Source: a virus | Virus record (IMG/VR): IMGVR_UViG_3300008267_000019 | Coordinates: 20,122-84,121 of that record | Direction: 5' to 3' (one strand) | DNA: 64,000 nucleotides | In this document: piece by piece, positions 2,444 through 35,790 of the stretch | Position numbering within the stretch: the first letter of the stretch is position 1 | Layout of the letters: each line of letters starts with the position of its first letter | Position numbers and translations under genes: made by a program | Notes under the pieces: generated by a model | Told to the model about the DNA's origin: nothing | Databases searched by the model: none | Seen by the model: the letters and a program-made list of their open reading frames with translations, nothing else

Positions 2444-3276
2444 TGCACGCAGGAAAAACAGTTTCATATAAAGCAATCCTTGATAAAACTATCAGGGATT
2501 TTGGCTTTAATTATGATATAATCGAAGAAGAAGGTATTGAATGGTTAGCAGAGTTCATGGCTCACACCAATGTAGGCGTGACTATGGAGGAAAAAATTGC
2601 ATATATGGAAATATGTGATGCTCGCGGAGATCTTCCTTTTGATTTATATAAAATTGGCCAAGCAGCACATATTGAAGGAGTAGAAACTATTGAAGAAGCT
2701 ATGTGTGGTAAAGGACGTATGTTTCCAATGAGATGGAAAACAGATTACTTCCACAAACGCTACCATAGAGACGATAGAGATTATACAACAGAATCTAGAG
2801 AAACTTATACTGTAGGTCAAGGATATATTTTCCCAAGTTTTAATAGAGGCATTGTAGCAATGAGTTACACTGCTATACCAACAGACGATTGCGGATACCC
2901 TACTATTCCTGCAGAGCAAGAATGGTTAGAAGCAGGGGCTCATTATATTGCATATAAAATTGCTAGAAAACTGTGGTTAAGAAATGAATTAGCTTCAGAT
3001 AAGTTTCAAATTATAGAACGAGATAGAGATTGGTATTTTGCACAAGCAGTAAATCATGCTAAACAATGGAATGGTGTTGATGAAGCAGAAACAGTTAAAA
3101 ACTCTGTACTTAGAACTATTCCTGATGTACAAGCGCATGCAAGCTTCTTTGCTAATATGCAATTACCTGAACAACGTAAATTTAGACCTAAAGCAGGTGT
3201 AGGTTTAGTATCAACAATTAATGTATTAACTCACGGACAAAATCCAGCAACTGTAGTACCATCTAACACTCCATAA
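2443..3276 (+). CDS. Tail tubular/ring protein (P22 gp4-like class in crAss phages)
   Basis: 277 aa immediately before the stabilisation protein; Y.AIPTDD.GYP.IP and W.FAQA motifs. Confidence 0.7.
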   Translation: MHAGKTVSYKAILDKTIRDFGFNYDIIEEEGIEWLAEFMAHTNVGVTMEEKIAYMEICDARGDLPFDLYKIGQAAHIEGVETIEEAMCGKGRMFPMRWKTDYFHKRYHRDDRDYTTESRETYTVGQGYIFPSFNRGIVAMSYTAIPTDDCGYPTIPAEQEWLEAGAHYIAYKIARKLWLRNELASDKFQIIERDRDWYFAQAVNHAKQWNGVDEAETVKNSVLRTIPDVQAHASFFANMQLPEQRKFRPKAGVGLVSTINVLTHGQNPATVVPSNTP

Positions 3277-11206: not shown

Positions 11207-11212
11207 GATACT

Positions 11213-17651: not shown

Positions 17652-20600
17652 ATGAAGGCTCCTAAAAAAGAACTTAAACCAAATCCTTTACATCAACAAT
17701 TAAAAGATTTTGCTACAAAAAATGCAGATAATATAGGATATAACAAAGAATATGTAGAAGAATTAAGTACTATAACTCCTGAAAATACTTCATATAAAGG
17801 AGTAGAAGCTTTACATGCTCCTAAAGAAGCCGATATTTATGATCCATATGAAGCATATATAAATAGAACAGAACTTCATAGTGGAAGATTTGATATAAAT
17901 GAATTAAATAGGCTTAGAGCAGAAAATCAATCTAATTGGGCCCAGGCAGGTAATGCTATAGGACAACTTGCTGTTAACATAGTTCCTCAAATTGCTTCTA
18001 CTGTTAGTAACATGATAAATGTTCCAGGATGGTTTTCTGCAGAAGCAGCTGCTGCTAATCCTATACAAGAATGGGCTAGTGGAATAAAAGAATGGTCTCA
18101 AGAAGCTATGCCTATTTATGAGGAAACTCCAGGGCAAATGAATATGGCAGATCCTGCATGGTGGTTTAGCAGAGGAGAAGGTTTAATAGAATCTATGACA
18201 TCTTTTGCTATACCAGGAGGTATAGCAGGTAAAGCTGTATCTGCAGGTTTTAAAGGATTAGGAGCAGTAACGAGAGGTAAACAATTAGTAAGAGCTGTAT
18301 TAGGAGCAGAAAAGTCTGCAGGGTTATTAAAAGGAATGAGCACATTAGGCACAGCTGCTTTATTAAATCAAGCAGAAGGTGCTACAATTGCTGCAGATGT
18401 TTATAAAAATACTTTAGATTATCAATTAAAGAAAAATGGAGGTAATGTAGACTTAGCTAAAAAGATGGCATCAGAAGCTGCAGCTACTGCTATGAGTATT
18501 AATAGAATTAATATTTTACTAAACCTTACTTCTGCTAGTGCTTTTTTAACTCCTTTTAAACAAACAAGAAATCTTTTAAAAACTCAAGGAATAGGTTCTA
18601 CTTTAAGTAAAATAGGTCTAGAAGCAGGTCAAGAAGCTACAGAAGAATTAATAAACCTTGTAGGACAAAAAGCAGGAGAAGCAAAAGGACGAGAGGAAGA
18701 AGATTACGTAGCTAAAGGTCTTGAAGCTATTGGTACAATGGAAGGTTTTGAATCTGTTTTTTTAGGAGCTTTAGGCGGTGCGGGTCAAACAGGATTAGTA
18801 GATGCTAGTCAATATTCTAAATATGGAGCAGGATCAACTAAAGATGCAGAAGGTAATAGAATTAGTTATGCCCAATATCAAAGTGATCTTTATAATCAAC
18901 AACAACAAACAATTAAAGAATTAGAAGACCAAGGTGTTCAAGTAAGTGATTCTTTAATGAATGTTAAAGATGCTGTTGTATTTAATGAAAAAAGAAATAA
19001 AGCAGCTGCTGAAGGAAATCAAGAGGAGTATGATAGACTTAATAATCAAATGTTTGAAAATCAAGCATTAAAAGCATTTCAATCTGGAACTACTAAAGTA
19101 TTAGAAAATTTATACAAAGCTGAAGCAGAAAGAGATGTTGAAGAAGTTGGACAAGAATATATTGACAAAGCAAATCAAGCTGTAAAAGATTTACAAACTC
19201 TTGAAAGTGTTTATAATAATTTTGAAGAATATACTAATGTAAATGATATATTCTTTAATCGTGCTAATAAAATTAGAACAGATAGAAATTTAGGATACAT
19301 TCAAGATGCTGCTAAAACTAATAATTTAGAATTAGCGCAATTAGTAAGAAACATAGCAGGTAAATATGAATATGACGTTGAAAGAGAAGTTCTTTATAAA
19401 AAAGAAGGAGAAGTTGAACGTACAGAAACAGTAACAGAAAAAGCACCATTGACATACTCAATGAGTGACTTAGAAAATAACACAGGACAAACAGAAGGAC
19501 AGAAAAAGGTTTATAATAAATTTTTAAAAGAAGTAAAAAAACTTGATGCTTATAAAAGAGAAGTGGGTTACCAACAAGCTATAAGTAATGGAGAAAAAAT
19601 TTTAGAAGATAATAATAAAGAATTTGCAGAGTTAACAAGTCCTGAAGCACAAGAAGCTGCTTTATTAAAACAAGAAAAAGTAGCAGCTATTAAAAGTGCT
19701 TATAAAGAAGTAGCAAGTACTAGTTCTAGAGCAAGAATACAAGCTCTAATGGACACTATTGAAGATCCTGATTTTAAAAGAGTAGCACAATTAAGATTAG
19801 ATGCTTTAGATAAAGCTAAAGCAAGTAACTTACAACAAAAGAAAAAAGACTTTGCTACTAAAACAATGGAGTCTAAAATTTCTAAAGCTAGTTTAGAAGA
19901 GTTAGCAACTATTCAAGAAGAAATTAATAAGGCAGATCCTAATGATATTTCTAAAACAGCTAAAGCAGCTTTATTAAATAAAGTAGAATTTAGAGCTAGA
20001 CAGTTAAATAATCAAGTATTAGATCCACAAGAAACCGCAGAAATTCAAGATCCTTTTGCTGACTTTGATTCTCGGTCCCCAGAAGAATTAGAAAATGAAA
20101 TAGAGTTAGAACAAAAATCCTTTGATACTACTATTCCTTCAGATTTTCCTAATAATGAAAAAGAAGGTAAAGATGTAGAAACAGAAGTAGAAAATGCTGC
20201 TGTAGATTTATTAGGTTCTGATAAGAGTTTAATAATAGGTACAGATGAAAACGGCAACTTAGTTTATAACTATGAAAAAAGTGCTGAAGGTTACAATCGC
20301 GCAGCTTTCTTATCAAGGGAGTTTAATCAAACAGAAAATGTAGGAATAGTAGATCGAGAAGAAATAACTAATGATGTTATTAATTCTAAATTACTAGATC
20401 CTGATTTTTTGTTAGCAGGTACTGCATTAACAATGGAAGTTGACAATGATTACACAGGAGAAAAATACGACCCAACTTCTACAACAAGAGAAACTATTGC
20501 TTGGCCTCTTAGATTAAAACAAATTATAGATAAATATGAAGTATTAGGACAAGACTATAGACAATCATATGAATATATAACAGAAGCTCCTATTAAAGTA

Positions 20601-23600
20601 ACTACAGCAGATGGACAAACAGTATTTTATGTACATGACAATGCTTGGTATAAAGCAGAAAATTTAAGTGCTAGTCCTGAAGAAATTGCTATTGATAAAG
20701 AAAAGAATTTCTTAATAAGAAAAGCTATTATCTCTAAAGGAAAAGTAAATAGCAAAGTAGATTATAAAAGCTTTGGAAGATTATTTAAAACAGCTGACGG
20801 TAAAAAAGTGACTGTATCAGAAGCTATGCCTGATAAAAATTTAGTATTAGGTATAGGAAAAGATGGAGCTATAGAACTTTCTGGAAATAGTTCAGAAGTT
20901 ATGAAAGATGCTAAAATCTTAAAGAATAATCCTGAAGATGGTAGGTTATATGCAGTTGTTAAAGTAGGACCTAATGAATACATGCCTATTCCTTTACAAA
21001 GAAAACCTATAAACCAAGAAACTGTAGATTCAATTATTTTAGCAATTGAAGCTCACTTAACTAATGATCCTGAAAATGCTGTAGTAAAAGCTATTGCAGA
21101 ATCTTCTTTAGGATTAGACATTACTACTACTAAAGGATTATCAGATTACTTGAGTCAGTTTATTTACATATATCCTACTGAAGGTAAAGAAGGTTTAGAA
21201 AATGCATTAATTAGCAACGGTGGTACTAAAAGTACTTTAAAGTCTTCTATGCCATTAATTACTGTAACTCCTACAGGAATACAATTTGGTAGACCAGGAA
21301 TACAAGCGGCCAATTATATGGACGCTAATAATAATAAGATAGTACAGTATGCTATTAATATTTCTCAAAATTTTAATAAAACTACTGCAGGAGAAGCTAG
21401 AAATAGTTTAAACTTAAATAAACTAAGAACAGTATTAGAATCAGGTAAAGTATTAGCTAATGCTAATAAAAATACTTTAAGCAAAGATGGTAACTCTGTA
21501 ATTATATTAAATCCTGAAGGAGATACTAAAACAGATACTTATAGAGAGTTTGTAAAAGAGAATTACGAAAGTAATATCTTGTCAGTAAACATAGGCTCAG
21601 ATGAAAATCCTAAATGGGCCTATACTATACAACCTACTATTTTATTTGACACAGCATTTGCTAACATGCCTACTCAAGTAGTTGCATCTAAAGCACAGTC
21701 TACTGTAGCACCTGTACCTAGCCAAACTGCACGTACTACACAAGAACCTACTCAAGCTGTAGAAAAACTTTATTATAAAGGAGTAAATCCTACAGTAGAT
21801 ACAATTGTAACTTCCGATGATAGGGTATTACTTATTAAACGTAAAGAAGGAGCTACAGAAGGGGGCAAGTGGGCAATTCCTGGCGGCTTTGTAGATACTA
21901 ATTCTAAACCAGGTGAAGCTTGGACTCCAGGAAAAGAAACAGTAGAAGAAGCAGCTGTTAGAGAAATTAAAGAAGAAACAGGTCTTAAAATTTCTCCAAA
22001 GTCAGTAGTATTTTCTGAAAAAATTGATGATAGATCTAGAGATCCTAGAAACACAGAAGAGTCTTGGATAGAGAATTCTCTTTATACTGTTAATATTCCA
22101 GCAAAACAAATGCAAAAAGCAAAAGGAGCAGACGATGCTTCTGAAGCTAGATGGTTTACTAAAGAAGAACTATCTCAAATGCCTGCATCTGATTTTGCTT
22201 TTGATCACAGTAAAGTATTAGAAAGAAATAATTTAAGGACACCTTTAACAGCTAATAATAATATAGAATCTCAAAAAGCTGATATAGAAAGAAGAAGACA
22301 AAAAGCAATTGAATTTAATAAAGGAGCTAAACCTGTTACTGAAGAAGATTTTAAAGAATTTGATGAAAATTTTGTACTTACAGAAGAATATAAAAAATTA
22401 TTAGGTACGTATGATTTTGATTTAGATCCAGAATCTAGATCTGATAATGATTTAGTAGGTAATATTAAATCTATACAAGAAGGTATAGATTTAATTAATG
22501 CCAAATATGATGCAGAGTTAGCAGCTTTAGAACAACCTTCTACAGACATAGAAGTTAAAAGAGCCGATATAGAAAGAAGAAAAGCTTTAAGTAAAATAGT
22601 TGAGTTAGACACAAGAATATCTGATGAAGAAGTCGATGCAGTACAACCTGAACCAGGAGTAAGGGTTACTTATTATTTACCAGAAGGTAAAACTACAGAT
22701 GGAAGAGATATTTCAAAAATACCCAGAGGTTCTATTGAAAGATATACTACAGAAACTAAAGTTTTTTATGGTTTTGAAGAAGCTGAACAAGAAGCAAAAG
22801 CGTGGATTAAATCTAAATATGATGAAGAACTAGCAGCTTTAGAAGCTGCTCCTATTGCATCTGAGATTTCTGTAGAAGAGCAAGTAGAACAAAATGTTCC
22901 TACATCATTAGCAGAAAATATATTAGCGCAAGGAGTTGATTTAGCAGAAATTAATGATACTATCGAAGCATTAAATAGTGGTAATATTAATGAAGAAGCT
23001 TTAGCAGAAGCGGGTTATGAATCTACAGAACAAGCATTAGCAGCTTATCAAGAGGCTAAAGATTTATATAATAAAAGAGCTGAAGATACCGAGACTATTA
23101 CTTTGCCTAACGGTGAGACTATCACTATTACAGGTAATGATTTAGATATTAACGATCTAGCAGAGGATGAAATAGATGATTTTTTAGTTAGAACATTAAC
23201 TAAAGAACAAATAGAAGCGCAAAAAGGAGAAATAGATGAGATGATCATCTATGGTTTAAATACTACTACTCAGTCATCTTTAATAGCTTTTTTATCAGCT
23301 GATATAATTAATGCTGCTTTAAATGCTAAAGAAGTTGGAGGCAAACGCAGCGTAAAGGCTAAAGAAATCTTAGACAAGCATGAAGAGTCTTTTAAAATAT
23401 TATCTGAATTCTTTAAAAAGAAAAATTTAGTAAATAGAGCAAAACATGTTGATGCTGTATTAAGTCAATTTGATAAAGTAAGAAGATTAGTAAACCAAAA
23501 CATGAGTAAGTTTACTACAGGAAATTTATCAGAAGAAGTAGAATACGATGATAATCAGCAAGCAGTAGGACTAGAGCGTACCTACGCAGATGATTGGACC

Positions 23601-26600
23601 TTCACAGTAGACTCTAAGAATACTGCTTCTGCTGATTTAAAACAATTTTTCAGTGTAATAACAGCTCAAGATGAAAATGGTGTAATTAAAAATCCTCTAG
23701 GATTTAATGAGATTATTCCTTTTGATGTTGTGTATAATACTCTTCATGAACTACTGGCTAATAAGCCTGCTGATTATGAAACAATGATAGATATCCTAGA
23801 GTTAAATTATAATAGATTTCCTTGGATAAAATCAGTAGTAGAAAAATTAGAAGCAGCTCCTGAAAGAATTCAAAACGAGTTTGTTTCTGATATGTCTAAG
23901 CATCATATAGACATGCAGTTTGTTATGTGGTCAAAAGATCCTAATGGAAATTATTTATTACAAACATGGTCTGCTAATAAATCATCTATTGAAAATAGAC
24001 TTAGAGCTATATGGTCTTCTAATTTAAAAGGTGTAGCAACTCAAAGTAACTTAGTTTATGTAGATGAAAATGATGTTTATCAATTTAATCGTACTGTAGC
24101 AGATAGTTTAATAGCGCAAGCAGAAGAATTTGGTATGAAGCCTGAAGATGTAACCAATGAAGCATTAGCTACATGGTTAGGAAATTTTGGTATAGTACTT
24201 AATGACGAAACTTATAATGATCTTAGAAAAGGAAGATACTTTAATAATGGCAGACAAGACTGGAATAAATTATTTAATAGCTCTAAAGGAATTGTAAAAG
24301 TACTTGCTAAAGAACTAAAGAAAAAAATAGACGGGGAAATAGATGTTGAAAATTCTAATATATTAAATGACACAGCAGTAAAAGCATTAGCTTCTTTGGA
24401 TGCAGCTAATACTTTAAATTCTTTTAGTAACTCTTTTAGAGCAGGTGGTAAAACTGTTTACTCTTATGGAAATAATAATTTCTTAGTAAATCGCATGCGA
24501 GATTTAACAGCATATGATTCACAGAATAAAATGTTTTTAAATCCTGATTTAATAGATAATCTAAAAAACATTTCTTTTAGTCGTGATAGTTTATGGCTGG
24601 ATGAATTAACTAGTGATAAAGAAATAGGAACAAAAACTAGACAAACATTAAAAGTTGGTTATCTATCATTAGAAGCTTTAAAAAGATTATATACTAAATC
24701 TGAAGACAATAGAAAATTAAATAATCTTACTGCTGCAGAACATGAAGTAACTAAATTAGGTTTTTTCCAAAATGTATCTGGAGAAATTTTTGACAAAGAA
24801 GGCAGAAGAGTCGTAGACTTTTTCTATCCTACTATGTCTGATAAGACTACTATGCTTACGATCAAAGCCCTCGCAAGAGAGATAAGCTATACTAATTCTA
24901 AATTATCTGAGGAAAATTTAAAGTTATTATATAAAGCAATAGTACAACCAGAAATAAATAGAATTAGAGACAAGCAAGCTAAAAATGTAAAAGGTTATGA
25001 ACCTAATTATTTTTATTTCTTGCCTGCTTTAAACAAATTAACTATAGATGTTAATGGTGTAACTAAAAGATTCTTAGATATAGTTTTAGATAAAACAGAT
25101 GTATTATACGATCCTGCAGTACAAGCAGCTGTAATGTCAGAAATTTCTACAACATTTAATAAATTAGTTTTAGATAAATTAGATGAGTGGAATACTTTAG
25201 GTATAGGTAAAATTATAGTAGATGAAAACGGAAAAGTTACCGACAACTATACTTTTATGGATAAATCCTACATGGAAACAGTTGCAAAAGGAACTAAAGG
25301 AAAAGGACGTGTAGAATATGCCGCAGCAGATTTTGTATATAATTATTTAATTTCTAATGCAGAAGCCTATAAATTATTTGCTGGGGATCCTGCTTTATAT
25401 GCTAAGTTTAAAACTAAAAAGAAATATGCCGAAAGCATTAACAAAACCGTAGAAACTTTAACAGAAGAAGACTTAGAAACTTGGTTAGATCAAAACCTAC
25501 AAGAAACTTTTATAAACATAGGTAAACGTCTTGCAGGAGATATTGCTCCAGGTATGGAGCTAGCTAATAGTATGGATAATGTTTACTATCAAGTTTATTT
25601 AGAAGATAAAGAAATTGCTAGTAATAATGTTAAGGATAGTGTTCAGAGAGAATTCTTTGAGAAAATAGTTAGTACATATGCTGATAAGAAAAAAGGATAT
25701 GGAGCTATAGAAGGATCAGATGCGCAGGAATATACTACTTGGCAAGAGCATTTATATGTAATGAAGCAACTAGGTAGGTTGACTAAAAAGCAATTTGATA
25801 CTTTTACTAAAAAACTTACTGCGCAAAGTCAAGGTAATTTTAGCAAAGAAAATAGGTTAACTTACGACGAACTAGGAATAATTTTACAGCCAATTAAACC
25901 TGTATATGTAGGTAACATAGCTTCTAAAGAAGAAAATGTAGATCGTAGAATATATATTAAATCTTCTAGCTTTCCATTAATCCCAGAATTAACGTCAGGC
26001 CTCCAGATAGATAAAATCCGTAAAGGATTAGAAAAGTTTGAAACAGAAGTAGGAAAGACAGTTACTAAGGACGGAGTTCCTGCTTTTGTTCGAGCTTCTT
26101 TTGGAACTGCTAATAAAGTAGGAGCCGTTAAAAATTCTGTAGAAACATTTGATGACAATGGCAATGTATTAGATAACTTTGAAGTTAAACCTGAAAATAC
26201 TTTATTACTATCAAGAGCTAACTTTAGAATACAGCAAGACGTGCCATATAAACGCGAAAAAGATAGCATCAATGTAGGAACCCAGGAAGCAGTGTTATTA
26301 TTTGTAAATCTTCTTAATACGCAAGTTACTACCGATAAAACAGGTAAAGAATTACTAGATAATTACAATAAAAACTATCAAGAATTATTTGCTTACAATC
26401 AAGAAAAGTTGGCTAAAAAATTAGGACTTATAGAAGAAGTTGCAGATGGTGCAGATCTTAGTAACCTAACAAGTATTCCTACAACTGATGTATTTACTAA
26501 AGTAGAAGAGTTTAATAACAAACTAAAAAGTGCATCTCCAATTAAAAAAGTATCTATGCAAGAGGTTTTTGCAGAAGAAGTTGGGGAAGATACACTAGAA

Positions 26601-26708
26601 AGAGTTAACTTTATAAACAAAAATTTTGATAAAATCGTAGAAGAGCTAGCAAAAGCTAAAGTTAATATCTTCTTTGATGAAAATAACGAATTTAAAAAAT
26701 GTGATTAA
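17652..26708 (+). CDS. Giant virion protein: N-terminal ejection-type region, Nudix domain and N-terminal (beta-like) half of the virion RNA polymerase
   Basis: 3018 aa; Nudix box GGFVD...E...AAVREIKEETG; crAss RNAP-type motifs PTMSDK, GDPA.Y, KRL....APG, SDAQEY, QPIKPVY, KSSSFPLIP, NKVG, RIQQDVP and GTQ. Confidence 0.8.
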   Translation: MKAPKKELKPNPLHQQLKDFATKNADNIGYNKEYVEELSTITPENTSYKGVEALHAPKEADIYDPYEAYINRTELHSGRFDINELNRLRAENQSNWAQAGNAIGQLAVNIVPQIASTVSNMINVPGWFSAEAAAANPIQEWASGIKEWSQEAMPIYEETPGQMNMADPAWWFSRGEGLIESMTSFAIPGGIAGKAVSAGFKGLGAVTRGKQLVRAVLGAEKSAGLLKGMSTLGTAALLNQAEGATIAADVYKNTLDYQLKKNGGNVDLAKKMASEAAATAMSINRINILLNLTSASAFLTPFKQTRNLLKTQGIGSTLSKIGLEAGQEATEELINLVGQKAGEAKGREEEDYVAKGLEAIGTMEGFESVFLGALGGAGQTGLVDASQYSKYGAGSTKDAEGNRISYAQYQSDLYNQQQQTIKELEDQGVQVSDSLMNVKDAVVFNEKRNKAAAEGNQEEYDRLNNQMFENQALKAFQSGTTKVLENLYKAEAERDVEEVGQEYIDKANQAVKDLQTLESVYNNFEEYTNVNDIFFNRANKIRTDRNLGYIQDAAKTNNLELAQLVRNIAGKYEYDVEREVLYKKEGEVERTETVTEKAPLTYSMSDLENNTGQTEGQKKVYNKFLKEVKKLDAYKREVGYQQAISNGEKILEDNNKEFAELTSPEAQEAALLKQEKVAAIKSAYKEVASTSSRARIQALMDTIEDPDFKRVAQLRLDALDKAKASNLQQKKKDFATKTMESKISKASLEELATIQEEINKADPNDISKTAKAALLNKVEFRARQLNNQVLDPQETAEIQDPFADFDSRSPEELENEIELEQKSFDTTIPSDFPNNEKEGKDVETEVENAAVDLLGSDKSLIIGTDENGNLVYNYEKSAEGYNRAAFLSREFNQTENVGIVDREEITNDVINSKLLDPDFLLAGTALTMEVDNDYTGEKYDPTSTTRETIAWPLRLKQIIDKYEVLGQDYRQSYEYITEAPIKVTTADGQTVFYVHDNAWYKAENLSASPEEIAIDKEKNFLIRKAIISKGKVNSKVDYKSFGRLFKTADGKKVTVSEAMPDKNLVLGIGKDGAIELSGNSSEVMKDAKILKNNPEDGRLYAVVKVGPNEYMPIPLQRKPINQETVDSIILAIEAHLTNDPENAVVKAIAESSLGLDITTTKGLSDYLSQFIYIYPTEGKEGLENALISNGGTKSTLKSSMPLITVTPTGIQFGRPGIQAANYMDANNNKIVQYAINISQNFNKTTAGEARNSLNLNKLRTVLESGKVLANANKNTLSKDGNSVIILNPEGDTKTDTYREFVKENYESNILSVNIGSDENPKWAYTIQPTILFDTAFANMPTQVVASKAQSTVAPVPSQTARTTQEPTQAVEKLYYKGVNPTVDTIVTSDDRVLLIKRKEGATEGGKWAIPGGFVDTNSKPGEAWTPGKETVEEAAVREIKEETGLKISPKSVVFSEKIDDRSRDPRNTEESWIENSLYTVNIPAKQMQKAKGADDASEARWFTKEELSQMPASDFAFDHSKVLERNNLRTPLTANNNIESQKADIERRRQKAIEFNKGAKPVTEEDFKEFDENFVLTEEYKKLLGTYDFDLDPESRSDNDLVGNIKSIQEGIDLINAKYDAELAALEQPSTDIEVKRADIERRKALSKIVELDTRISDEEVDAVQPEPGVRVTYYLPEGKTTDGRDISKIPRGSIERYTTETKVFYGFEEAEQEAKAWIKSKYDEELAALEAAPIASEISVEEQVEQNVPTSLAENILAQGVDLAEINDTIEALNSGNINEEALAEAGYESTEQALAAYQEAKDLYNKRAEDTETITLPNGETITITGNDLDINDLAEDEIDDFLVRTLTKEQIEAQKGEIDEMIIYGLNTTTQSSLIAFLSADIINAALNAKEVGGKRSVKAKEILDKHEESFKILSEFFKKKNLVNRAKHVDAVLSQFDKVRRLVNQNMSKFTTGNLSEEVEYDDNQQAVGLERTYADDWTFTVDSKNTASADLKQFFSVITAQDENGVIKNPLGFNEIIPFDVVYNTLHELLANKPADYETMIDILELNYNRFPWIKSVVEKLEAAPERIQNEFVSDMSKHHIDMQFVMWSKDPNGNYLLQTWSANKSSIENRLRAIWSSNLKGVATQSNLVYVDENDVYQFNRTVADSLIAQAEEFGMKPEDVTNEALATWLGNFGIVLNDETYNDLRKGRYFNNGRQDWNKLFNSSKGIVKVLAKELKKKIDGEIDVENSNILNDTAVKALASLDAANTLNSFSNSFRAGGKTVYSYGNNNFLVNRMRDLTAYDSQNKMFLNPDLIDNLKNISFSRDSLWLDELTSDKEIGTKTRQTLKVGYLSLEALKRLYTKSEDNRKLNNLTAAEHEVTKLGFFQNVSGEIFDKEGRRVVDFFYPTMSDKTTMLTIKALAREISYTNSKLSEENLKLLYKAIVQPEINRIRDKQAKNVKGYEPNYFYFLPALNKLTIDVNGVTKRFLDIVLDKTDVLYDPAVQAAVMSEISTTFNKLVLDKLDEWNTLGIGKIIVDENGKVTDNYTFMDKSYMETVAKGTKGKGRVEYAAADFVYNYLISNAEAYKLFAGDPALYAKFKTKKKYAESINKTVETLTEEDLETWLDQNLQETFINIGKRLAGDIAPGMELANSMDNVYYQVYLEDKEIASNNVKDSVQREFFEKIVSTYADKKKGYGAIEGSDAQEYTTWQEHLYVMKQLGRLTKKQFDTFTKKLTAQSQGNFSKENRLTYDELGIILQPIKPVYVGNIASKEENVDRRIYIKSSSFPLIPELTSGLQIDKIRKGLEKFETEVGKTVTKDGVPAFVRASFGTANKVGAVKNSVETFDDNGNVLDNFEVKPENTLLLSRANFRIQQDVPYKREKDSINVGTQEAVLLFVNLLNTQVTTDKTGKELLDNYNKNYQELFAYNQEKLAKKLGLIEEVADGADLSNLTSIPTTDVFTKVEEFNNKLKSASPIKKVSMQEVFAEEVGEDTLERVNFINKNFDKIVEELAKAKVNIFFDENNEFKKCD

Positions 26709-27181
26709 TGGAAAAATTACTTACAGACATAGAACAAAAAGAGCTTAATAAATTTGGAAAGTTAGAACTTACTGCTTCCCAAGTTTATTTGCATTTGTCT
26801 AACCGCATGAAAACATTAGGTTACTTTGGTGCAGAAAAATTTTTCTTATCAGAATCTAATAGTGAAAGAGAACACTATGGTAAAATAGAAAAATTTGCTA
26901 ATGATTTAGGATGTGAACTTTCAGTAGAAGCTTTAGATGCTGTAGAATGTAATTGCACAGATATTAAATCTGCTTTACAAATGGCATATGATATGGAGAA
27001 AGAGTTAATGAATTCTTATGAAACTTCTGCTAGAAAATCTGATTTAACATTAAAAGTAGTTTTATTGTTACAAGACTTTACTACTCACCAAGTAGGAGCC
27101 GTAGGAGAATATGGTGATTTGCTAGCAAGATTAGCTCTTACAGATAACATGTTATTATTCGATCAAGAATTAGGCAACTAA
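26708..27181 (+). CDS. Ferritin-like protein
   Basis: 157 aa four-helix pattern ELTASQVY...G...FF..ES.SEREH...AY.MEK...HQ, matching the ferroxidase-centre residues of FtnA-type ferritins. Confidence 0.85.
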   Translation: MEKLLTDIEQKELNKFGKLELTASQVYLHLSNRMKTLGYFGAEKFFLSESNSEREHYGKIEKFANDLGCELSVEALDAVECNCTDIKSALQMAYDMEKELMNSYETSARKSDLTLKVVLLLQDFTTHQVGAVGEYGDLLARLALTDNMLLFDQELGN

Positions 27182-27192
27182 AATAATTTATA

Positions 27193-30100
27193 ATGGCTTG
27201 TCAGTATTTTGTTAACGGCAACTGGGTTACAGAAGAGCAGTTTAAAGAAATTTTAAATAATGGTTTATTAGACAATCTAATTGCTGATAATACTGTTAAA
27301 TTAAAAAACTTTAAAATAGATCAATCAAAAGTATTATCTAGAGAGACTAGACGAGTAGAAAGAAAAACTATTCCCGCTGCAAAGCTTGCTGATATATTAG
27401 CAAAAGAAATTAAGTCTCGTCAAGGATATCCTTCAAACTTACTTTCTGCTTTAGAACTTACTGAAGATGGCCAAGATTTTAAGATTCCATTATGGGCATC
27501 TCCTTATGCTGCAAAATTTGAAAGCTTACTTACTTCTCTCGTTACTAATAAAGTTATTAAACAAAAGTTTGCAGGAATGTCAGGAGTCCTTGGATCAGAA
27601 GAAGGATTTAGAATTAAACAAGGAGATGCTGCTGCAGGAGAATTAAAAAATTCAGGTATTGTATTTACTAAAAACTTTGATCCAGAAAAAGGATTACAAC
27701 CATTACGTGTAGATCCTGAAACAGGTAAAATGCTTCCTGCACAAATAATGTTGCCTTTTAAATTTAGAGACGAATCTGGAAAAATTTTGCCTTTAGAAGA
27801 TTTTTTAATTAAAGATGAATCTGGAAAATTTATATTAGATACTTCTAAATTTCCTCAAAAATTATTAAATCTTTTTGGTTTCCGTATTCCTACACAGGAA
27901 CGTAACTCTATGGCAGCTGTAGAAATAGTAGGATTCTTACCTGAAGCATCTGGAGATCTAATTTTAGCACCTAGAGATTTTACAAAACAAATGGGTTCTG
28001 ACTTTGACGTTGATAAGTTATATACTTATATGTACAATCATTTCTACGACAGAAATACAGGAAAGATCTATACTAATTTTATATCTAATAAAGAAAAATT
28101 AGAAAAATTAATTAAGATTCAAAAAGAAACTATTGAAGATTTAAAAGCAGAGTTTAAATTAAATAAAGAAGATAGAAAACTAATTGATGCATATATTAAA
28201 GAAAAATTAGAATATACATCAGAAAATGAAGAAATACCTAGTGAACTATCACAAAAAGCTTCTGAAATAATTTCTAAAAGTTTATCAGAAGATTTACAAA
28301 ATAAATTAGATGCAGCTTTTGATTCATTATCAGTATTAAATAGATCTTATAAATCTTCTAGACAAAATAATATACTAGATGTGCATCTAGATATTATGAC
28401 TAGTAATAATCCAGAAGTTATTTCTAGTATTATAGCATTAGATTCCTTTGGGGAATTTGAAGATCTAGCTGCTGACATAAGTAAAATACGTAAAGCTCAA
28501 GGCTTAATTTCTGATCCTGTTACTATTCTTTCAGATTCTTATCAAAGAAAAAAGTTTATTAATGCAACTGAAGGTAAAAATGGAGTAGGTGCATTCTCTT
28601 TAGACTCTACTTTTAATGCTACAGCACAAGGAAAAGATTTGTTATACGTCAATATGAGCGACGAAACATATCAAGATATTATAAATAATAATGCTCCAGG
28701 TAGTATAGCTGCAAAATTATTAGAAAACAATAATCCTGTAACTAAATTTGGAGATACTGTTTCTATGGGGGATCTTTCTAATGAATATACTTTAAGATCT
28801 CAACAGCTTATTATTAAAGCTAAAGCAGAAAAAAGAGAATTAACTAAGAAAGAAAAACAATCTTTAAAATTTAAGTCTAATATTATTAGGGCCCTACAAT
28901 CTACATCAGTGGATAATGAAAAAGCACAGATCTTAGATAAATTAAACATTAATGATAATACTTTTGATGCTATTAGAGCATTAGTGCAATTAGGTTTTGA
29001 AGAAAAAGATATCGTAGGTTTAATTACTCAAGAGATTGTTTGGGAATATGTAAGTAATTTAAAAGAAGCAGGATCTTCTTTAATGGGCTATACTCCTAAT
29101 ATGGAGCAAAAAGTTTATGAAGATCTTATAAAAAAATATGACAAACAAGAAAGATACAATAAACTTACTGTTGCACAAATAGAACAGTTTAGTTCTGGAT
29201 CTAGTGAAAAATTATTAGAAAATATAGCTAATAAAAAATTACAAGAGTCTAATAAAGAAACTACTACACCTGATTATAATATAGAACAGCTAGCATTACT
29301 AGATAAATTTAGATATTTAACAGAAGTAGGAAAAGATATTAAAAAACTACAATCAGGAATAAATGCATTCTCTAAAGGTCTTCCTAAATCTTTAATAGAA
29401 GTACAAAGTAAAATCAAACAAATAAGCAATTTAACTACTTCTAAAGTATACAATGCCGATAAGTTATTAGGAGAAATTAATAATGAAGGGATATTAGTAA
29501 ATCCTACTACTCTTAATGGATTTGCTAGTTATTATGGAACTAACTTTGCAGATAAAATATTTAATAATTATTTTCCATATAATATTCAAGGATTTAAAAG
29601 TGTAACACAGGAAGTGCAAGCTCACATGCCTCAAGGAGCAGATATAAGTGTTACTCGCCAAGCAGAATTACAACAAGAAATATTTAATAATGTAAAGTCT
29701 TTCTTGTATGCAAATTCTGATACTAATCTATTTGGGGAAGATCCTGATTCAGAGCGCAGAAGATTATTTGTAGATTCTAAAGATAATATGAGTCTTGCAA
29801 CTATTCTATCTAAGTTATCTAGTCAAGAATGGTTTCAAAAAAATGGTTTCTTAAACAAACTTTCTTTTGATTTAAATAAAAACGGTAAAGTTTCTAGAAT
29901 AATGTTTGAATCTGCAACAGGTGAAAACTTTGATGAAAGAGATATATATGATGGATTTAATTATTTATTAAGTAAAAATTTTCCAATAAAAAATCCATCA
30001 TCCCCAGATGGCACTTTTAATAGTATAGAATATACTTCTAGAATGCTGGCACAAGAACTTGTAGCTGCTGCATATTTAGAGGGCGGTACTCAAGGAGCTG

Positions 30101-31632
30101 CACAATATTTAAAATATATTCCAATATCTTATTTAAAATCTTTAGGATTTGGCGAATACCTAGCTAATAGTCCATTTGATTTTGCTAGTACTTTTTTTGG
30201 TAATTTATCTACAGGAGGGCCTATATATACAATGCCTTCTGCATTTACTAGACAATATTTTCAAAATAATCCTAGTGCTACAAAGACTATAACTATGTCA
30301 GATATAGAAGGAGCACCTGATAAATTAGAAAATAGTTTTAAACTAAATAAAGAAGCTACTAAAAATAACTTTGTAGATATTATAGATCCTGCTACTGGAG
30401 ATCTTACACAAACACAAACTAAATTTATTAGCATCTATGCCCCTAAAGAAGTAAACAAATATGTTTTATATGAATTTGATGAAGTAGCTAGAGAATATAA
30501 GAAAATACCTGTACTATCTGATAAATACGACTTTGTAGCTTATAACTCAGAAAGAAGATTCTCTACACCTATAGAAAGTGGAGAAATAGTTACTACTACT
30601 CCTCCGCAATTAAACTTACCAGGATACGGCATTAACAGTATACCTGTAGAGCCTAGTAAAGAGTTTAACATTAATGTCGTAAATAATACTGCTAAACCTG
30701 CTACAGGAAATAGTTTAGCTATTTCTAAAGATTTATCAGGTACTAAAGAAGCTGTAGATGATTTATTTAATGTCTTAGAAACTGCGCCAGGTATATCTAA
30801 ACTTAATGCACAATTGATGGTGTTATTAAGAACTTTAGAACTTCCTAAAGGATTTAAAGTTGAGTACGCAAAGAAAGGTAAAACAATTAAAGGAGGTTAT
30901 AATTATAAAACAAATACCTTAACAATAAATACAGATATTTTTAACGAGTTATCTACTGATGAAATAGCTACTACTATAAATCATGAATTAATTCATGCAG
31001 TTACAGGAAAAGCTATTAAACTTTATGAAGCAGGAAAATTTGATGAACTTACTGATAAACAAATTGAAGTTATTCAAAGATTACAAGAAGTTCAAAAACA
31101 ATATATTGATTATTTAATAAGCACTGAAGGAACAAAAGGAATAGAAACTTTTGCTAAAGCTTATGCAGAATTTAAAGAGTTAGGTAAAAAAGGAAATTGG
31201 ACAGATGAGGAGCTTAGTAAGTACTATGGTGCTATAAAACTTTCTGAGTTTGTAACAATGGCTCTTACAGATTCTAAATTCCAAGAGCACTTAAATCAAA
31301 TACCTGGAGATAATAATAGAACTCTTTGGGAGCAAATTAAAGATTTACTTGCTAGTTTAGTTAATGCATTAGGATTAGATATTAAACCAGGTTCTGCTCT
31401 TGTAGTAGCAATAAAAGATTCTTTAGATTTAATTAATGTAAATCAAGAAATTTTTAAAGATCAGAAAGTTACTAATCAACCTACTCAACCATCTATTCAA
31501 ACTAATGAAAATATGTCTTTAGAAGATTGGGAAAATTATAGTAGTATTAATGATCTATTTGACGAATCTATTACAGAATCATTGATTAGTAGGGATAAAT
31601 ACGAAAACTATTTGTTAATTTGTGGAAAATAA
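27193..31632 (+). CDS. Virion RNA polymerase catalytic (beta'-like) half fused to a C-terminal zincin metallopeptidase
   Basis: GFRIPTQ and GSDFDVDKLY (DxDxD at 28000-28014); HELIH at 30982-30996 with a downstream SEFVTMAL glutamate helix. Confidence 0.88.
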   Translation: MACQYFVNGNWVTEEQFKEILNNGLLDNLIADNTVKLKNFKIDQSKVLSRETRRVERKTIPAAKLADILAKEIKSRQGYPSNLLSALELTEDGQDFKIPLWASPYAAKFESLLTSLVTNKVIKQKFAGMSGVLGSEEGFRIKQGDAAAGELKNSGIVFTKNFDPEKGLQPLRVDPETGKMLPAQIMLPFKFRDESGKILPLEDFLIKDESGKFILDTSKFPQKLLNLFGFRIPTQERNSMAAVEIVGFLPEASGDLILAPRDFTKQMGSDFDVDKLYTYMYNHFYDRNTGKIYTNFISNKEKLEKLIKIQKETIEDLKAEFKLNKEDRKLIDAYIKEKLEYTSENEEIPSELSQKASEIISKSLSEDLQNKLDAAFDSLSVLNRSYKSSRQNNILDVHLDIMTSNNPEVISSIIALDSFGEFEDLAADISKIRKAQGLISDPVTILSDSYQRKKFINATEGKNGVGAFSLDSTFNATAQGKDLLYVNMSDETYQDIINNNAPGSIAAKLLENNNPVTKFGDTVSMGDLSNEYTLRSQQLIIKAKAEKRELTKKEKQSLKFKSNIIRALQSTSVDNEKAQILDKLNINDNTFDAIRALVQLGFEEKDIVGLITQEIVWEYVSNLKEAGSSLMGYTPNMEQKVYEDLIKKYDKQERYNKLTVAQIEQFSSGSSEKLLENIANKKLQESNKETTTPDYNIEQLALLDKFRYLTEVGKDIKKLQSGINAFSKGLPKSLIEVQSKIKQISNLTTSKVYNADKLLGEINNEGILVNPTTLNGFASYYGTNFADKIFNNYFPYNIQGFKSVTQEVQAHMPQGADISVTRQAELQQEIFNNVKSFLYANSDTNLFGEDPDSERRRLFVDSKDNMSLATILSKLSSQEWFQKNGFLNKLSFDLNKNGKVSRIMFESATGENFDERDIYDGFNYLLSKNFPIKNPSSPDGTFNSIEYTSRMLAQELVAAAYLEGGTQGAAQYLKYIPISYLKSLGFGEYLANSPFDFASTFFGNLSTGGPIYTMPSAFTRQYFQNNPSATKTITMSDIEGAPDKLENSFKLNKEATKNNFVDIIDPATGDLTQTQTKFISIYAPKEVNKYVLYEFDEVAREYKKIPVLSDKYDFVAYNSERRFSTPIESGEIVTTTPPQLNLPGYGINSIPVEPSKEFNINVVNNTAKPATGNSLAISKDLSGTKEAVDDLFNVLETAPGISKLNAQLMVLLRTLELPKGFKVEYAKKGKTIKGGYNYKTNTLTINTDIFNELSTDEIATTINHELIHAVTGKAIKLYEAGKFDELTDKQIEVIQRLQEVQKQYIDYLISTEGTKGIETFAKAYAEFKELGKKGNWTDEELSKYYGAIKLSEFVTMALTDSKFQEHLNQIPGDNNRTLWEQIKDLLASLVNALGLDIKPGSALVVAIKDSLDLINVNQEIFKDQKVTNQPTQPSIQTNENMSLEDWENYSSINDLFDESITESLISRDKYENYLLICGK

Positions 31633-31638
31633 AATACG

Positions 31639-34600
31639 ATGGCAGAAGTCTGTGCAAATAAAAATAGTAAGGAATGGAAGATGCTAGTTTCTCAAACAGG
31701 AGAGACTTTAGCAAATCTTGCATTCATGGCAAATGGTAATCAAATTCCCGATGTTAAGCCTATTACAGAAATTAAAAAAGAAATAGGTTTTAAACCTTTA
31801 GTAGAAAACTTTGCAGGAATAGGTAATAAATTAAGAAAGTACAATCAAAAAAACGGAACGTCACATTATTTTATAAAAGAAAGAGCTTGGGGTAATACTT
31901 TTAGATTAACTCTAAAGTATAACTACTTACCTGTTAATATAGAAAGACAACGTCAAAGAATGGCTGCTAAAGGGGATCCTTTATATGTTATTAATGACTT
32001 TGATCCAAAAGCATTTAGTGATATTTATCCTAATGTACCTACTCCTCAAATTATAACACCTCCTACACAGCCAGGCAAACAGTTAGATATATTTTCTGAT
32101 GACATAGATGAGTTACTTACAGGATCAGAAACTAGAGTAACTGCTGTAGAGCAGAAAAGAAAACAAAAGATTAACACTGATATTATAAAACAACGTGAGC
32201 AATTAAAAAAAGCAGATACTCCAGAAGAAGTTAGAAGTATATATGCTAAATTAGAAAAACTACAAAAAAGTTTAGACTTAGCAGAAAAAAGAACTATTTT
32301 ATCTAGAAATATAGAAAGCTTTGAAGATGTAGAAAAGTTTGGTAAAGTACAATTAAAAGAAATAGAAACTTTACTTAAAAATCCTGCAATAAGTTATGAT
32401 GATGTTTATTATGCTCAAAGGATTCTTAATTTATGGACAAAAGCAGGAGATTTTTCTAGTAAATCTAATGAACATATTTTTTTAGATCCTGAAGAATTTG
32501 AATCTTCTGAAGATGTAACATTACCTGATGGTACTGTAGTACCTTCTGTACGTTCTAGATTTAGAGCTTTAGGAGCTAAGGCAGAAGATTTACAAAGTCA
32601 ACTTACTACTATTAGAGATCAATACGTTACAGATTTTGTAAATCAATATACTGATGGGGGATTAACTCAAGAAGAAGTTTTTAAGGCTATGAAAGATGTC
32701 CATAAGATGGCAACTTTAACTTTAAATCTATCTCGTCATGATGATGCAATGTTGCAAGCTATATTTCTTTCTGTAGAATCTGCTAATATAAAAGCACAGC
32801 AAGAAGTAGATGAAGTTTGGAAAAAGCTTGATAGCCTGACCCCAAAATTTTTAAGAAAAGCAGGCGGTAATTTTGAAATTTTAAAACAAAAAGATTCTTC
32901 TGGTAAAGAAACAGGAAGAATAGTACATAGATTTTCTGCAGACTTTTTTGACATTAGAAATAATCTAATGATGGAAGCTTTTTATAAAAAAGATCTTAAC
33001 ACAGGAGATTACAAAAAAAATCCTGCAGGAATAAAAAGCTACTATGATTGGATTAATAAAAATACTATTTCATTTGATCCAAGAATGTTATTTGAAGATA
33101 GCCTTCTTGAAGATGGTTCTATGCCTGAAGAGTTTTTATACAATAGAGTTAAATTTGATGAAGCTCAAAAGCAGGCTCATATTGCAGAATTAAAAGCACA
33201 GTTAGGCGAAAAAGGTTATAATTATTATCTCCAACAAATGGAGAAAAGAATTGAGAAATTTAAAGTTCGTAGAGAAGCTATATATGAAAGCATGCAATCA
33301 GAACCTGAATTATCTCAAGTAGAAAAAGATGCTTTATTTGAAAACTGGCTAAAAGAATATTCTCCTTATTGGGGAGTTGACATGGTAGAAAATCCTGCTC
33401 AAAGAGAAAAAGGCACTAGTACAGAAGGAAAAAAAGAATACTATTCTCCAAAAGGTTTAAGAGAATATGTAGAACAAGTTCCTAGAAAATTTGTAGATGG
33501 TAAAGAAACAGGATGGTACGATAAAAACTTTCAAAAAATAGAAGCAGATGAAGATCTATTAGCTTATCATACTTTTCTTAATGAAACTCTTAATACATTA
33601 AAATATACTTTACCTGATAATAAACAAGCAATACTAGGAGAAGGTGTATTACCTACTGTCCAAAAATCTTTAATGGATATTTTTAAAGAAAAAGGATTAA
33701 TGATGGGTGTTGTTCCTTTTTGGGACAAAATGAAAGAATTACAGACCACTACTGATTTATCTACTACAGTAACTACTGATGTAGATGATTTAACAGGAGA
33801 TAGAGAAAAAAATATTCAAATACAATTTTTAGAAGACCCTACTAATAAAATAAAAAATCTAGTTAGAGAGATGGCTATACGCCATAAACAGGAAACAGGA
33901 AAACCTGCTACTGCTGCAGACATGGCTAGATTTAAAAGAGAAGCACAAGATACTTTATCTAAACAAAAAAGTTGGGACGTTACTAAAGTACTTAAAGCAT
34001 GGTCTTTAACAGTATTAGCACACAAACATAAATCTTTTATAGAGCCTCAGATTAGATTAGCAGATCAAGCTTTTAAATCTAGAAAAGAAATAGTAACTAA
34101 TAAAGCAGGATTACCCCAAGAAAAAGATGGTCAACCTTTAAATGAAACAGGTTTAAATAACTTACAGTCCGCATTAGATTACTATTTAGATGTAGACATG
34201 TGGGGTATAGGCGGAAGAAAAGTAGAAGGTGTTACTAAAACTAAATTATATACTAAAGAAGAGCAAAAAAGAAAAAAAGAATTGGAAGCTTTATTAGTTT
34301 CTGAAGAAGATGAAGAAAACAAACAGTTTATTCAAAATCAAATTGATGCTTTAGGAGGATTTAGAACAGGTAGTGGTGTAGTAGATACAGTGCTTAAATA
34401 TCAAACCTTAAAAGGACTAGGGTGGAACTTATTTTCTGCAGCATCTAATATTGGATTTGGAGCAATTTCTAATATAATAGAAGGAGCTGACGGTAGAAAT
34501 TATTCTACAAAAGATTTGCGTAAAGCAATGTTACTTACTACTAATTCTATAGGAAGAAATCTATTTTTTAATACTTGGGAAGGTGTAAATTCTAATGCTG

Positions 34601-35763
34601 TTAAAATTAGAACATTAATGGATAAATGGGATTTAATGAAGACTTCTAATAATGAAACCTTCAATACTTCTCAAAAATCTTCAATGTCTAAATTAAAAAG
34701 ATTTGGACCATTTACTTTGCAAGAAAGATCGGAGTACTTAAACCAGGCTCCTATTATGATAGCAGTAATGATGTCAACAAATGAAGACGGTTCTCCAAGA
34801 TTTCCTGCAAAAGATGCAGAAGGAAATACTGTTACTATTTGGGATGCTTATGATGTTAGAACAGGTAGTTTAAAACCTGGATTTACAACTGATGTAGATG
34901 AAGTAAAAATGATTCAAAAAATAAAAAGAATCATTGAAATGAATCACGGTGATTACGCTAATCCTCTACAAATAAAATCTACTGCATTAGGAAGAGCAGC
35001 ATCCCAGTTTAGAACTTGGATGTTTGAAGGATTTGCTAGCCGTTTTGAATCAGAAAAAGTAGACTATGCTTTATCCTATGGTTTAGATGAACCTTATATA
35101 CGCAAAGGTCGTTACCGTAGTTATAGTAAAGGACAATTAGTTACTGCAGGAGCAACTTTAGGCACAACATTTTTACCAGGTATTGGTACTGCAATAGGTG
35201 CAGGAGCTGGTTATCTGGCAGGTAAATTTTTTGGAATGCAGACTAATGAATCTGTTATAGGAGATACATTGTTTACATTAAAACAATTATTAAGAAAATT
35301 AATTTTTAAACCTACACAATTCCAAGATAAATTTAATGCTACAGATGCTGCTAATATGCGTAAAAATATGACAGAGTTATATGTGTTATTAACATTAGCA
35401 GGTGTAGGACTATTACTATCAGGTCTTGCAGGAGATGATGATGACGAGGATGAAGCAATGGTAACTAATTTCTTGCTTAATCAAACTATTAGACTCCGTA
35501 CTGATGTAGGATTTTATACTAATCCTTTAGAATTTGAAAAACTTACTAAAACAGCTATTCCAATGGCAAGTTTAGTAGAAGAAGTAGCTACACTATTTGC
35601 CGATATAGGAAATTATTTTGGAGAAGATTCTAAAGAAAAGTCAATTTTTGAATCAGGACCGTTTAAAGGAAGACCTAAATTTTTAATACATGCAGGGCAA
35701 TTATTACCAGGAACTGCACAAGGTATTAGATTATACAAAAGTGGAACTAAAGTACTAGATTAA
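31639..35763 (+). CDS. Large virion cargo/ejection protein
   Basis: 1374 aa, helical, with C-terminal hydrophobic and Gly-rich segments and HGDY...QFRTW...GRYRS motifs; last gene of the + strand arm, as in crAss-like phages. Confidence 0.7.
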   Translation: MAEVCANKNSKEWKMLVSQTGETLANLAFMANGNQIPDVKPITEIKKEIGFKPLVENFAGIGNKLRKYNQKNGTSHYFIKERAWGNTFRLTLKYNYLPVNIERQRQRMAAKGDPLYVINDFDPKAFSDIYPNVPTPQIITPPTQPGKQLDIFSDDIDELLTGSETRVTAVEQKRKQKINTDIIKQREQLKKADTPEEVRSIYAKLEKLQKSLDLAEKRTILSRNIESFEDVEKFGKVQLKEIETLLKNPAISYDDVYYAQRILNLWTKAGDFSSKSNEHIFLDPEEFESSEDVTLPDGTVVPSVRSRFRALGAKAEDLQSQLTTIRDQYVTDFVNQYTDGGLTQEEVFKAMKDVHKMATLTLNLSRHDDAMLQAIFLSVESANIKAQQEVDEVWKKLDSLTPKFLRKAGGNFEILKQKDSSGKETGRIVHRFSADFFDIRNNLMMEAFYKKDLNTGDYKKNPAGIKSYYDWINKNTISFDPRMLFEDSLLEDGSMPEEFLYNRVKFDEAQKQAHIAELKAQLGEKGYNYYLQQMEKRIEKFKVRREAIYESMQSEPELSQVEKDALFENWLKEYSPYWGVDMVENPAQREKGTSTEGKKEYYSPKGLREYVEQVPRKFVDGKETGWYDKNFQKIEADEDLLAYHTFLNETLNTLKYTLPDNKQAILGEGVLPTVQKSLMDIFKEKGLMMGVVPFWDKMKELQTTTDLSTTVTTDVDDLTGDREKNIQIQFLEDPTNKIKNLVREMAIRHKQETGKPATAADMARFKREAQDTLSKQKSWDVTKVLKAWSLTVLAHKHKSFIEPQIRLADQAFKSRKEIVTNKAGLPQEKDGQPLNETGLNNLQSALDYYLDVDMWGIGGRKVEGVTKTKLYTKEEQKRKKELEALLVSEEDEENKQFIQNQIDALGGFRTGSGVVDTVLKYQTLKGLGWNLFSAASNIGFGAISNIIEGADGRNYSTKDLRKAMLLTTNSIGRNLFFNTWEGVNSNAVKIRTLMDKWDLMKTSNNETFNTSQKSSMSKLKRFGPFTLQERSEYLNQAPIMIAVMMSTNEDGSPRFPAKDAEGNTVTIWDAYDVRTGSLKPGFTTDVDEVKMIQKIKRIIEMNHGDYANPLQIKSTALGRAASQFRTWMFEGFASRFESEKVDYALSYGLDEPYIRKGRYRSYSKGQLVTAGATLGTTFLPGIGTAIGAGAGYLAGKFFGMQTNESVIGDTLFTLKQLLRKLIFKPTQFQDKFNATDAANMRKNMTELYVLLTLAGVGLLLSGLAGDDDDEDEAMVTNFLLNQTIRLRTDVGFYTNPLEFEKLTKTAIPMASLVEEVATLFADIGNYFGEDSKEKSIFESGPFKGRPKFLIHAGQLLPGTAQGIRLYKSGTKVLD

Positions 35764-35790
35764 AAAGAGCAGTATTAATTACTGCTCTTT
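35764..35790. terminator. Bidirectional intrinsic terminator between the convergent gene arms
   Basis: Perfect 11-bp inverted repeat AAAGAGCAGTA-ttaat-TACTGCTCTTT at the junction of the + and - arms. Confidence 0.75.

Follow-up and report, generated by a model that had tools for sequence, protein, structure and literature searches.

The stretch of DNA analyzed here (the window, 64,000 nucleotides; positions 20,122 to 84,121 of IMG/VR record IMGVR_UViG_3300008267_000019) carries three very large genes on its + strand, each ending in TAA, whose products we refer to as A, B, and C and whose few cysteines are confined to the ends at which one protein faces the next (Table 1). Pfam matches to the muzzle and to cargo protein 1 identify the window as part of a Crassvirales phage, and the A-B-C module sits in the crassvirus structural block, downstream of both of these genes. 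At least half of the sampled words of the window DNA are present in four runs from four studies, labeled freshwater metagenome in three cases and plain metagenome in one. As judged from homology, A, B, and C form the RNA polymerase module of a freshwater crAss-like phage, which is predicted to be packed in the virion.

Together, the three proteins contain 4 Cys in 5,871 residues, whereas ~59 would be expected from the 1.0% Cys content of open reading frames (ORFs) outside the module. One Cys lies at the C-terminal end of A, one at each end of B, and one at the N-terminal end of C, with none at the two outer ends of the module. A first-pass annotation of the window had listed exactly these four residues and codons, and translation of every ORF confirmed them without change. 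Random placement of four Cys would put one in each facing five-residue end with a probability of ~1.3e-11, a figure computed after the pattern had been noticed; hence, conservation in relatives is the real test. Among control ORFs outside the module, taken from the window and its relatives, a Cys occurs in the first eight residues in 7/159 and in the last eight in 13/159.

All four Cys are kept in three close relatives (57 to 60% identity to B). A profile scan of IMG/VR yielded 79 loci, denoted here by L numbers, at 25 to 63% identity, which together with the window (80) were collapsed at 90% identity to 64 clusters with one representative each; L001 to L003 were dropped as the same contigs as L005, L006, and L014, and L004 (phage FpV4) was analyzed apart. 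ORFs of at least 130 residues were called from the first ATG, and junctions were called automatically between successive + strand ORFs of at least 250 residues in the module, skipping shorter ones. Over the 64 clusters, 220 of the 361,828 module residues are Cys, and Cys is found within eight residues of the end on both sides of 71 of the 81 junctions, on one side of 3, and on neither side of 7. No complete outer end carries one (0/50 N-terminal and 0/57 C-terminal). Conservation and pairing in homologs was one of the points on which the first-pass annotation had staked its proposal beforehand, and the terminal Cys are indeed conserved and paired among homologs, down to ~25% identity and across three Crassvirales families.

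The C-terminal member of a pair lies one to three residues from the end in 64 of the 71 paired junctions (overall range, one to seven), and the N-terminal member is residue 3 to 5 in 66 (overall range, 3 to 8); the codon is TGT in 131 cases and TGC in 11. Lys or Arg occupies position −2 relative to the C-terminal Cys in 34/71 and position −1 in 30/71, compared with 12.8% overall, and such flanks may favor a reactive thiolate at this Cys. Cys1477 of B is the sole invariant column in the alignment of the B tail, and Cys5 of C is invariant across 11 sequences.

The same rule is followed by named phages. In phi14:2, the pairs are formed by gp67 Cys1797, gp66 Cys3 and Cys2179, and gp65 Cys3. In crAss001, gp47 (2341 residues, only Cys 2339) is encoded on one strand, and gp50 (Cys at 5, 1334, and 2404) and gp49 (only Cys 5) are encoded on the other; in DAC15, too, the first protein is encoded on the strand opposite to that of its two partners, without loss of the pairs. 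Because partners can be encoded on opposite strands and both TGT and TGC are used, the pairing does not reflect an effect of adjacent DNA. Rudgehvirus jaberico, cr118_1, CrAssphage LMMB, and cr1_1 conform as well, and the phages following the rule span Steigviridae, Intestiviridae, and Suoliviridae (families as named in the records).

The homologous proteins of phi14:2 (gp67-gp66-gp65) and crAss001 (gp47-gp50-gp49), which have been found in virions by mass spectrometry (phage records; PMC10172136), allow the parts of the module to be assigned. With blastp, A 2498-2878 matches phi14:2 gp66 795-1116 (E 1e-15) and B 48-282 matches gp66 1162-1373 (E 1e-14), with B 1194-1394 aligning to gp65 175-338 (E 0.004) and C matching gp65 (E 2e-12); C also matches crAss001 gp49 (E 2.9e-11). 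The N-terminal part of A resembles phi14:2 gp67 and crAss001 gp47, reaching E 0.09 at best against the former. These phi14:2 matches came from blastp and phmmer --max, default phmmer against the phi14:2 proteins being empty, and among PDB sequences there was no phmmer match at E ≤0.01 for A 1901-3018 or for B. From the blastp matches, A joins a gp67-like part to the first half of the polymerase, whose second half lies in B together with the protease-like start of gp65; C corresponds to the remainder of gp65. The acidic motif of the two-barrel polymerase falls in B, where G268, D270, D272, D274, and K275 are invariant in homologs, FpV4 included; in phi14:2, the motif has been named DFDxD (10.1101/2020.03.07.982082).

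In some relatives, the module is a single polyprotein of ~5,000 to 5,900 residues, which in the window is cut into three genes. That the three polymerase-module proteins are fused as one polyprotein in some phages has been described previously (10.1101/2020.03.07.982082), and the 4401-position profile phrog_16227, which the end of A matches at positions 2749-2990 and B at 3005-4018, indicates that A and B form one protein elsewhere. All six chains encoded by a single ORF contain 0 Cys; four of these are complete, at 4933, 5141, 5332, and 5920 residues. In FpV4, gp32 corresponds to A and B fused (4287 residues), its only Cys is residue 4286, and gp33 begins MAC. The fused A+B protein of L016 (2012-15139; 4375 residues) has six internal Cys at 3047-3344 in addition to the terminal one, unlike its Cys-free relatives.

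Mapped onto the fused 5920-residue protein of L046, breaks fall at ~2000-2250, at 3312-3322 (the clade of the window), at ~3400-3450 (L081), and at ~4700-4850 (most loci), with extra cuts in L050, L071, and L083. The breaks of phi14:2 precede the polymerase and the protease region, positions at which the window lacks Cys; the two breaks of the window lie elsewhere, one inside gp66 (between ~1116 and 1162) and the other past the protease region. In the alignments, Cys pairs thus follow gene breaks, not alignment positions. On a FastTree phylogeny of the polymerase core (63 rows, L057 missing), at least 3, 3, and 6 changes of state are required for the three break classes, counts that mosaic ancestry could inflate.

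The ten junctions without a full pair comprise three in L081, one in L017, and two each in L076, L038, and L050. In L081, a single junction is split into three rows by ~5.9 kilobases (kb) of other genes, and the true partners both carry Cys (end ...GCLWQ, start MAIKC); the intervening segment (3639-9550) contains five ORFs inside a break that keeps its pair. The unpaired junction of L017 is an overlapping +1 frameshift. Those of L076 flank an ORF for a LAGLIDADG endonuclease (10813-11586, E 4.5e-20) inside the catalytic motif, where the polymerase is interrupted at ...FTKQMGSD; this insert is probably an intron, so that the break would be healed before translation. Breaks that are predicted not to be real ones (L017 and L076) carry no Cys pair.

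The break between A and B is specific to the clade of the window and, as mapped by the above matches, lies inside the polymerase; the two cut ends must adjoin in the folded enzyme. Among relatives in which A and B are fused, L011 is the closest (54 to 64% identity around this site); in it, the residue aligned with A 2943 leads straight on to that aligned with B 55. Neither the ~75-residue C-terminal tail of A nor the ~54-residue N-terminal head of B has a counterpart there, and between them in the window lies an ORF for a ferritin-like protein that the first-pass annotation had left unmentioned. Because L011 runs uninterrupted, the tail of A, the ferritin-like gene, and the head of B amount to an insertion at a single polymerase site. 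The ferritin-like gene is found at the same place in 9/9 clade clusters with the A/B break, all of which also keep the tail, the head, and both Cys, whereas the fused clade members L011 and L016 have no Cys at this site. The tail is conserved in nine clade members and its Cys is invariant; in the head, M1, C3, Y5, V7, and W11 are invariant in nine sequences. Both Cys sit at the far tips of tail and head, and a bond joining them would turn the insert into a closed loop, restoring one continuous chain. In the ferritin-like orthologs (n = 9), columns in the E, ER.HY, ME, and GEY segments are conserved but the protein's own Cys are not; we read the Glu and Glu-x-x-His columns as putative ligands. 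A duplicated junction cassette was considered and rejected, given hhalign probabilities of 0.15% for the head of B against that of C and 0.11% for the tail of A against that of B.

A solved precedent for such a link exists in another phage. In the pre-ejectosome of cyanopodophage A4 (Anabaena phage A-4L), cryo–electron microscopy revealed a disulfide between gp27 Cys1715 and gp26 Cys5, gp27 inserting its C-terminal helix into gp26 (PMC12002296, PNAS 2025). In the A-4L record, the only Cys of gp27 (1717 residues) is 1715, third from the end, and the only Cys of gp26 (1114 residues) is residue 5. Both systems present large ejection proteins (predicted ones in the window) from adjacent genes, with a lone Cys at the C-terminal end of one followed by a lone Cys at the N-terminal end of the next. 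A, B, C, and a fused relative show no homology to A4 gp26 to gp29 (best blastp E 0.96). A4 has one link and no polymerase, whereas here there would be two links (up to five in L050), one of them through the polymerase, and pairs that come and go with gene breaks do not feature in the portions of the A4 account available to us (PMC12002296). The first-pass annotation was not aware of any description of its proposed arrangement. This holds for Crassvirales, for which we found no report of terminal-Cys pairing in the literature searched, as judged by titles and abstract openings; the main text of PMC10172136 does not contain the word "cysteine," and that of the preprint 10.1101/2020.03.07.982082 contains neither "cysteine" nor "disulfide." Within the literature searched, the terminal-Cys rule would be new for Crassvirales, but an end-to-end disulfide between ejection proteins is already known from A4.

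Two further systems help to place the module. Coliphage N4 likewise ejects a giant polymerase, which belongs to a different, single-subunit family. As the first-pass annotation had noted for ejected proteins of this type, its gp50 (3500 residues), gp51 (644), and gp52 (150) contain 0 Cys, as would be expected if ejected proteins generally avoid this residue; lacking terminal Cys, they do not suggest a chain. In T4-like phages, essential genes are cut by free-standing homing endonucleases, and the halves reassemble and are held non-covalently. The LAGLIDADG ORF in the catalytic motif of L076 and a GIY-YIG gene in a break of L050 are reminiscent of these split genes, whereas here every real break, those of L038 and L050 considered below apart, carries a Cys pair, and the insert in the window is a ferritin-like gene. 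The L050 gene (18553-19278) encodes a GIY-YIG endonuclease with a sigma-70 region-4 domain and lies inside a break that keeps its Cys pair; the module of this locus is cut into at least six pieces.

Taken together, the best explanation of the pattern is a head-to-tail disulfide chain, A-S-S-B-S-S-C, that restores the topology of the polyprotein, to which we assign a probability of roughly 65%. Inter-subunit disulfides do occur in crAss001 virions, although the host is an anaerobe; these are described for the tail and the portal vertex only (PMC10172136). The module has been purged of Cys, with one kept one to five residues from each partner-facing end; the purge probably arose because the proteins would have to pass the tail partly unfolded and in single file, such that a stray cross-link would jam them. 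Non-covalent docking of the facing ends would come first, either in the cytoplasm, which is reducing, or in the procapsid, and the two thiols could then oxidize to a disulfide inside the closed capsid or after release into oxic water. The resulting unbranched chain would be topologically equal to the fused polyprotein, so that the three products would remain joined in a 1:1:1 ratio and exit in sequence, and the reducing cytoplasm of the host would reopen the links. The first-pass annotation had proposed that the terminal Cys link the three products in gene order, fixing stoichiometry and ejection order, with release by reduction; this interpretation is partly supported by our analysis, from which we infer, for this lineage, both the bond and its timing together with these consequences.

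Several observations weigh against a disulfide chain. Many Crassvirales hosts are strict anaerobes, and assembly in a reducing cytoplasm means that recruitment of the proteins cannot depend on the link. No such bond has been observed in any crassvirus, and the crAss001 structure does not resolve these proteins (PMC10172136). The junctions 1226/2859 and 254/1089 of L038 lack a pair, and the series 2422/594/1118 of L050 has Cys on one side or none. In cr116_1, gp051 ends in Cys, but the annotated gp049 has no N-terminal Cys, and crAss002 gp33 obeys the rule only when read from Met33 (MSC). In addition, ORF starts were taken at the first ATG, the junction counts lack phylogenetic independence, and the FastTree phylogeny has 13/60 forks open and one long-branch warning. 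Reading TAG as Gln, considered as a way of healing the breaks of L038 and L050, hardly changes the ORFs and was discarded.

The facing Cys could alternatively mark a docked end-to-end contact that uses another chemistry, either by sharing a metal ion or as a redox-sensor thiol after injection. Pairing and break dependence require a joint role of the two residues but leave its chemistry unspecified, and both the ferritin-like gene in the A/B break and the anaerobic lifestyle of many hosts could be taken in this direction. One thiol per partner is, however, too few for the usual tetrahedral metal site, the same one-plus-one arrangement is a disulfide in A4, and most lineages with Cys pairs have no ferritin-like gene. 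Hence, we regard another chemistry as unlikely, if the best placed of the alternatives to a disulfide.

Slightly less probable still is that each terminal Cys acts alone, in homodimers or in attachment to another part of the virion, with no ordered A-B-C chain. The odd number of terminal Cys in cr116_1 would agree with this, as would the lone C-terminal Cys without a partner in Intestiviridae (LMMB 860 of 861, crAss002 550 of 557). Independent anchors would not, however, always come as a C-terminal end plus an N-terminal end, nor would they vanish upon fusion, and the fused proteins carry none; the bare outer ends set against the paired junctions in the cluster survey point the same way.

A very improbable third option is that the A/B break is healed by an intron or an intein, such that A and B form one chain and the Cys are splice-site residues. 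L076 does have an endonuclease-bearing insert in its polymerase gene, and inteins use Cys at splice junctions. However, A and B contain no Pfam intein (Hint) domain at E ≤0.01, the ORF in the gap is ferritin-like and not an endonuclease, and the Cys are found at the far ends of the tail (75 residues) and the head (54 residues), the reverse of split-intein topology. The head of B also shows synonymous to non-synonymous codon differences of 9:3 between L007 and L013 and of 14:14 between the window and L005, in an ungapped comparison that insertions and deletions spoil in most pairs, leaving L007/L013 and window/L005 usable (head of B and head of C); for the tail of A, the corresponding differences are 4 synonymous and 3 non-synonymous. 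Finally, an origin by chance, or from a signal in the nucleotide sequence where genes meet, has a negligible probability, and one could say for it only that the pattern was noticed after the fact. The comparison with relatives refutes it: 71 of the 81 junctions are paired whereas control ORFs reach 4% and 8% per end, the partners in crAss001 and DAC15 lie on opposite strands, and the Cys varies in position (1 to 7 from the C-terminal end, 3 to 8 from the N-terminal end) and uses both codons.

If the disulfide chain exists, then it may have a wider consequence, which we put forward tentatively and at somewhat less than even odds. Disulfide stitching would make a polyprotein of ~6,000 residues a modular thread that mobile genes could cut anywhere, even through the polymerase, since a new terminal Cys pair would restore an unbranched chain for single-file ejection and the reducing cytoplasm of the host would then separate the parts and free the polymerase. 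The window would capture a recent insertion of this kind, consisting of tail, ferritin-like gene, and head and supplied with its own staple. A redox-cleavable chain would explain both the avoidance of Cys in giant ejected proteins and the tolerance of repeated gene splitting. Few phages of the human gut are as abundant as crassviruses, which are also common in water. Still open is the question of how several megadaltons of protein, including an RNA polymerase of their own, are packaged and delivered (PMC10172136). The proposed chain would, if true, be a testable answer for stoichiometry, exit order, and release, and a test is within reach because phi14:2, crAss001, DAC15, and FpV4, which show the same pattern, are cultured.

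Table 1. Features of the module and its surroundings, in window coordinates
Feature	Position	Strand	Details
crAss_MUZ (muzzle)	3276-7685	.	PF25731, Pfam E 1.2e-130
crAss_CARG1 (cargo protein 1) domain	11213-15013	.	PF25725, Pfam E 1.8e-29
Protein A	17652-26708	+	3018 residues; only Cys, residue 3017
NUDIX hydrolase domain in A	21789-22220	+	Residues 1380-1523; PF00293, E 5.4e-18, 65.7 bits, cut-off 21.1
A tail	26481-26705	+	~75 C-terminal residues, no counterpart in L011; ends ...FKKCD
Codon of A Cys3017	26700-26702	+	TGT; second residue from end (...FKKCD)
Ferritin-like ORF in A/B break	26708-27181	+	157 residues, 3 Cys; PF00210, E 1.1e-12, 48.5 bits, cut-off 24.5
Protein B	27193-31632	+	1479 residues; Cys only at residues 3 and 1477
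B head	27193-27354	+	~54 N-terminal residues (MACQYFVNG...), no counterpart in L011
Codon of B Cys3	27199-27201	+	TGT
GSDFDVDK	27994-28017	+	B 268-275; acidic DxDxD motif of two-barrel polymerase
SprT-like/zincin-like stretch in B	30847-31005	+	Residues 1219-1271; PF10263, E 1.8e-5
Codon of B Cys1477	31621-31623	+	TGT; third residue from end (...LLICGK)
Protein C	31639-35763	+	1374 residues; only Cys, residue 5
Codon of C Cys5	31651-31653	+	TGT
Inverted repeat	35764-35790	.	11 base pairs, 5-base loop, right after C stop; read from sequence

Some features of the module and its neighborhood lie outside this argument. The match of B to PF10263 scores 24.9 bits, just below the cut-off of 25.6, and phrog_3768 also matches there. 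B and C share a reading frame and are separated by the TAA of B and two codons (31633-31638). The + and − gene blocks converge at the inverted repeat downstream of C, where the sign of the GC skew (the strand bias of G over C) also changes, and this repeat is likely a terminator. In Intestiviridae, a smaller cargo protein encoded upstream has a lone Cys near its C-terminal end, and the next gene has no N-terminal Cys (L092, CrAssphage LMMB, 5042-7627, residue 860 of 861; L090, crAss002, 5370-7043, 550 of 557; L086, 4957-7230, 747 of 757). Between the muzzle protein and cargo protein 1, the window also encodes a 1173-residue protein without Cys (7685-11206, + strand), residues 610-781 of which match the ADP-ribosyltransferase exoenzyme domain PF03496 (E 1.6e-6, 28.1 bits, cut-off 23.4); this protein is possibly an ejected host-modifying enzyme.

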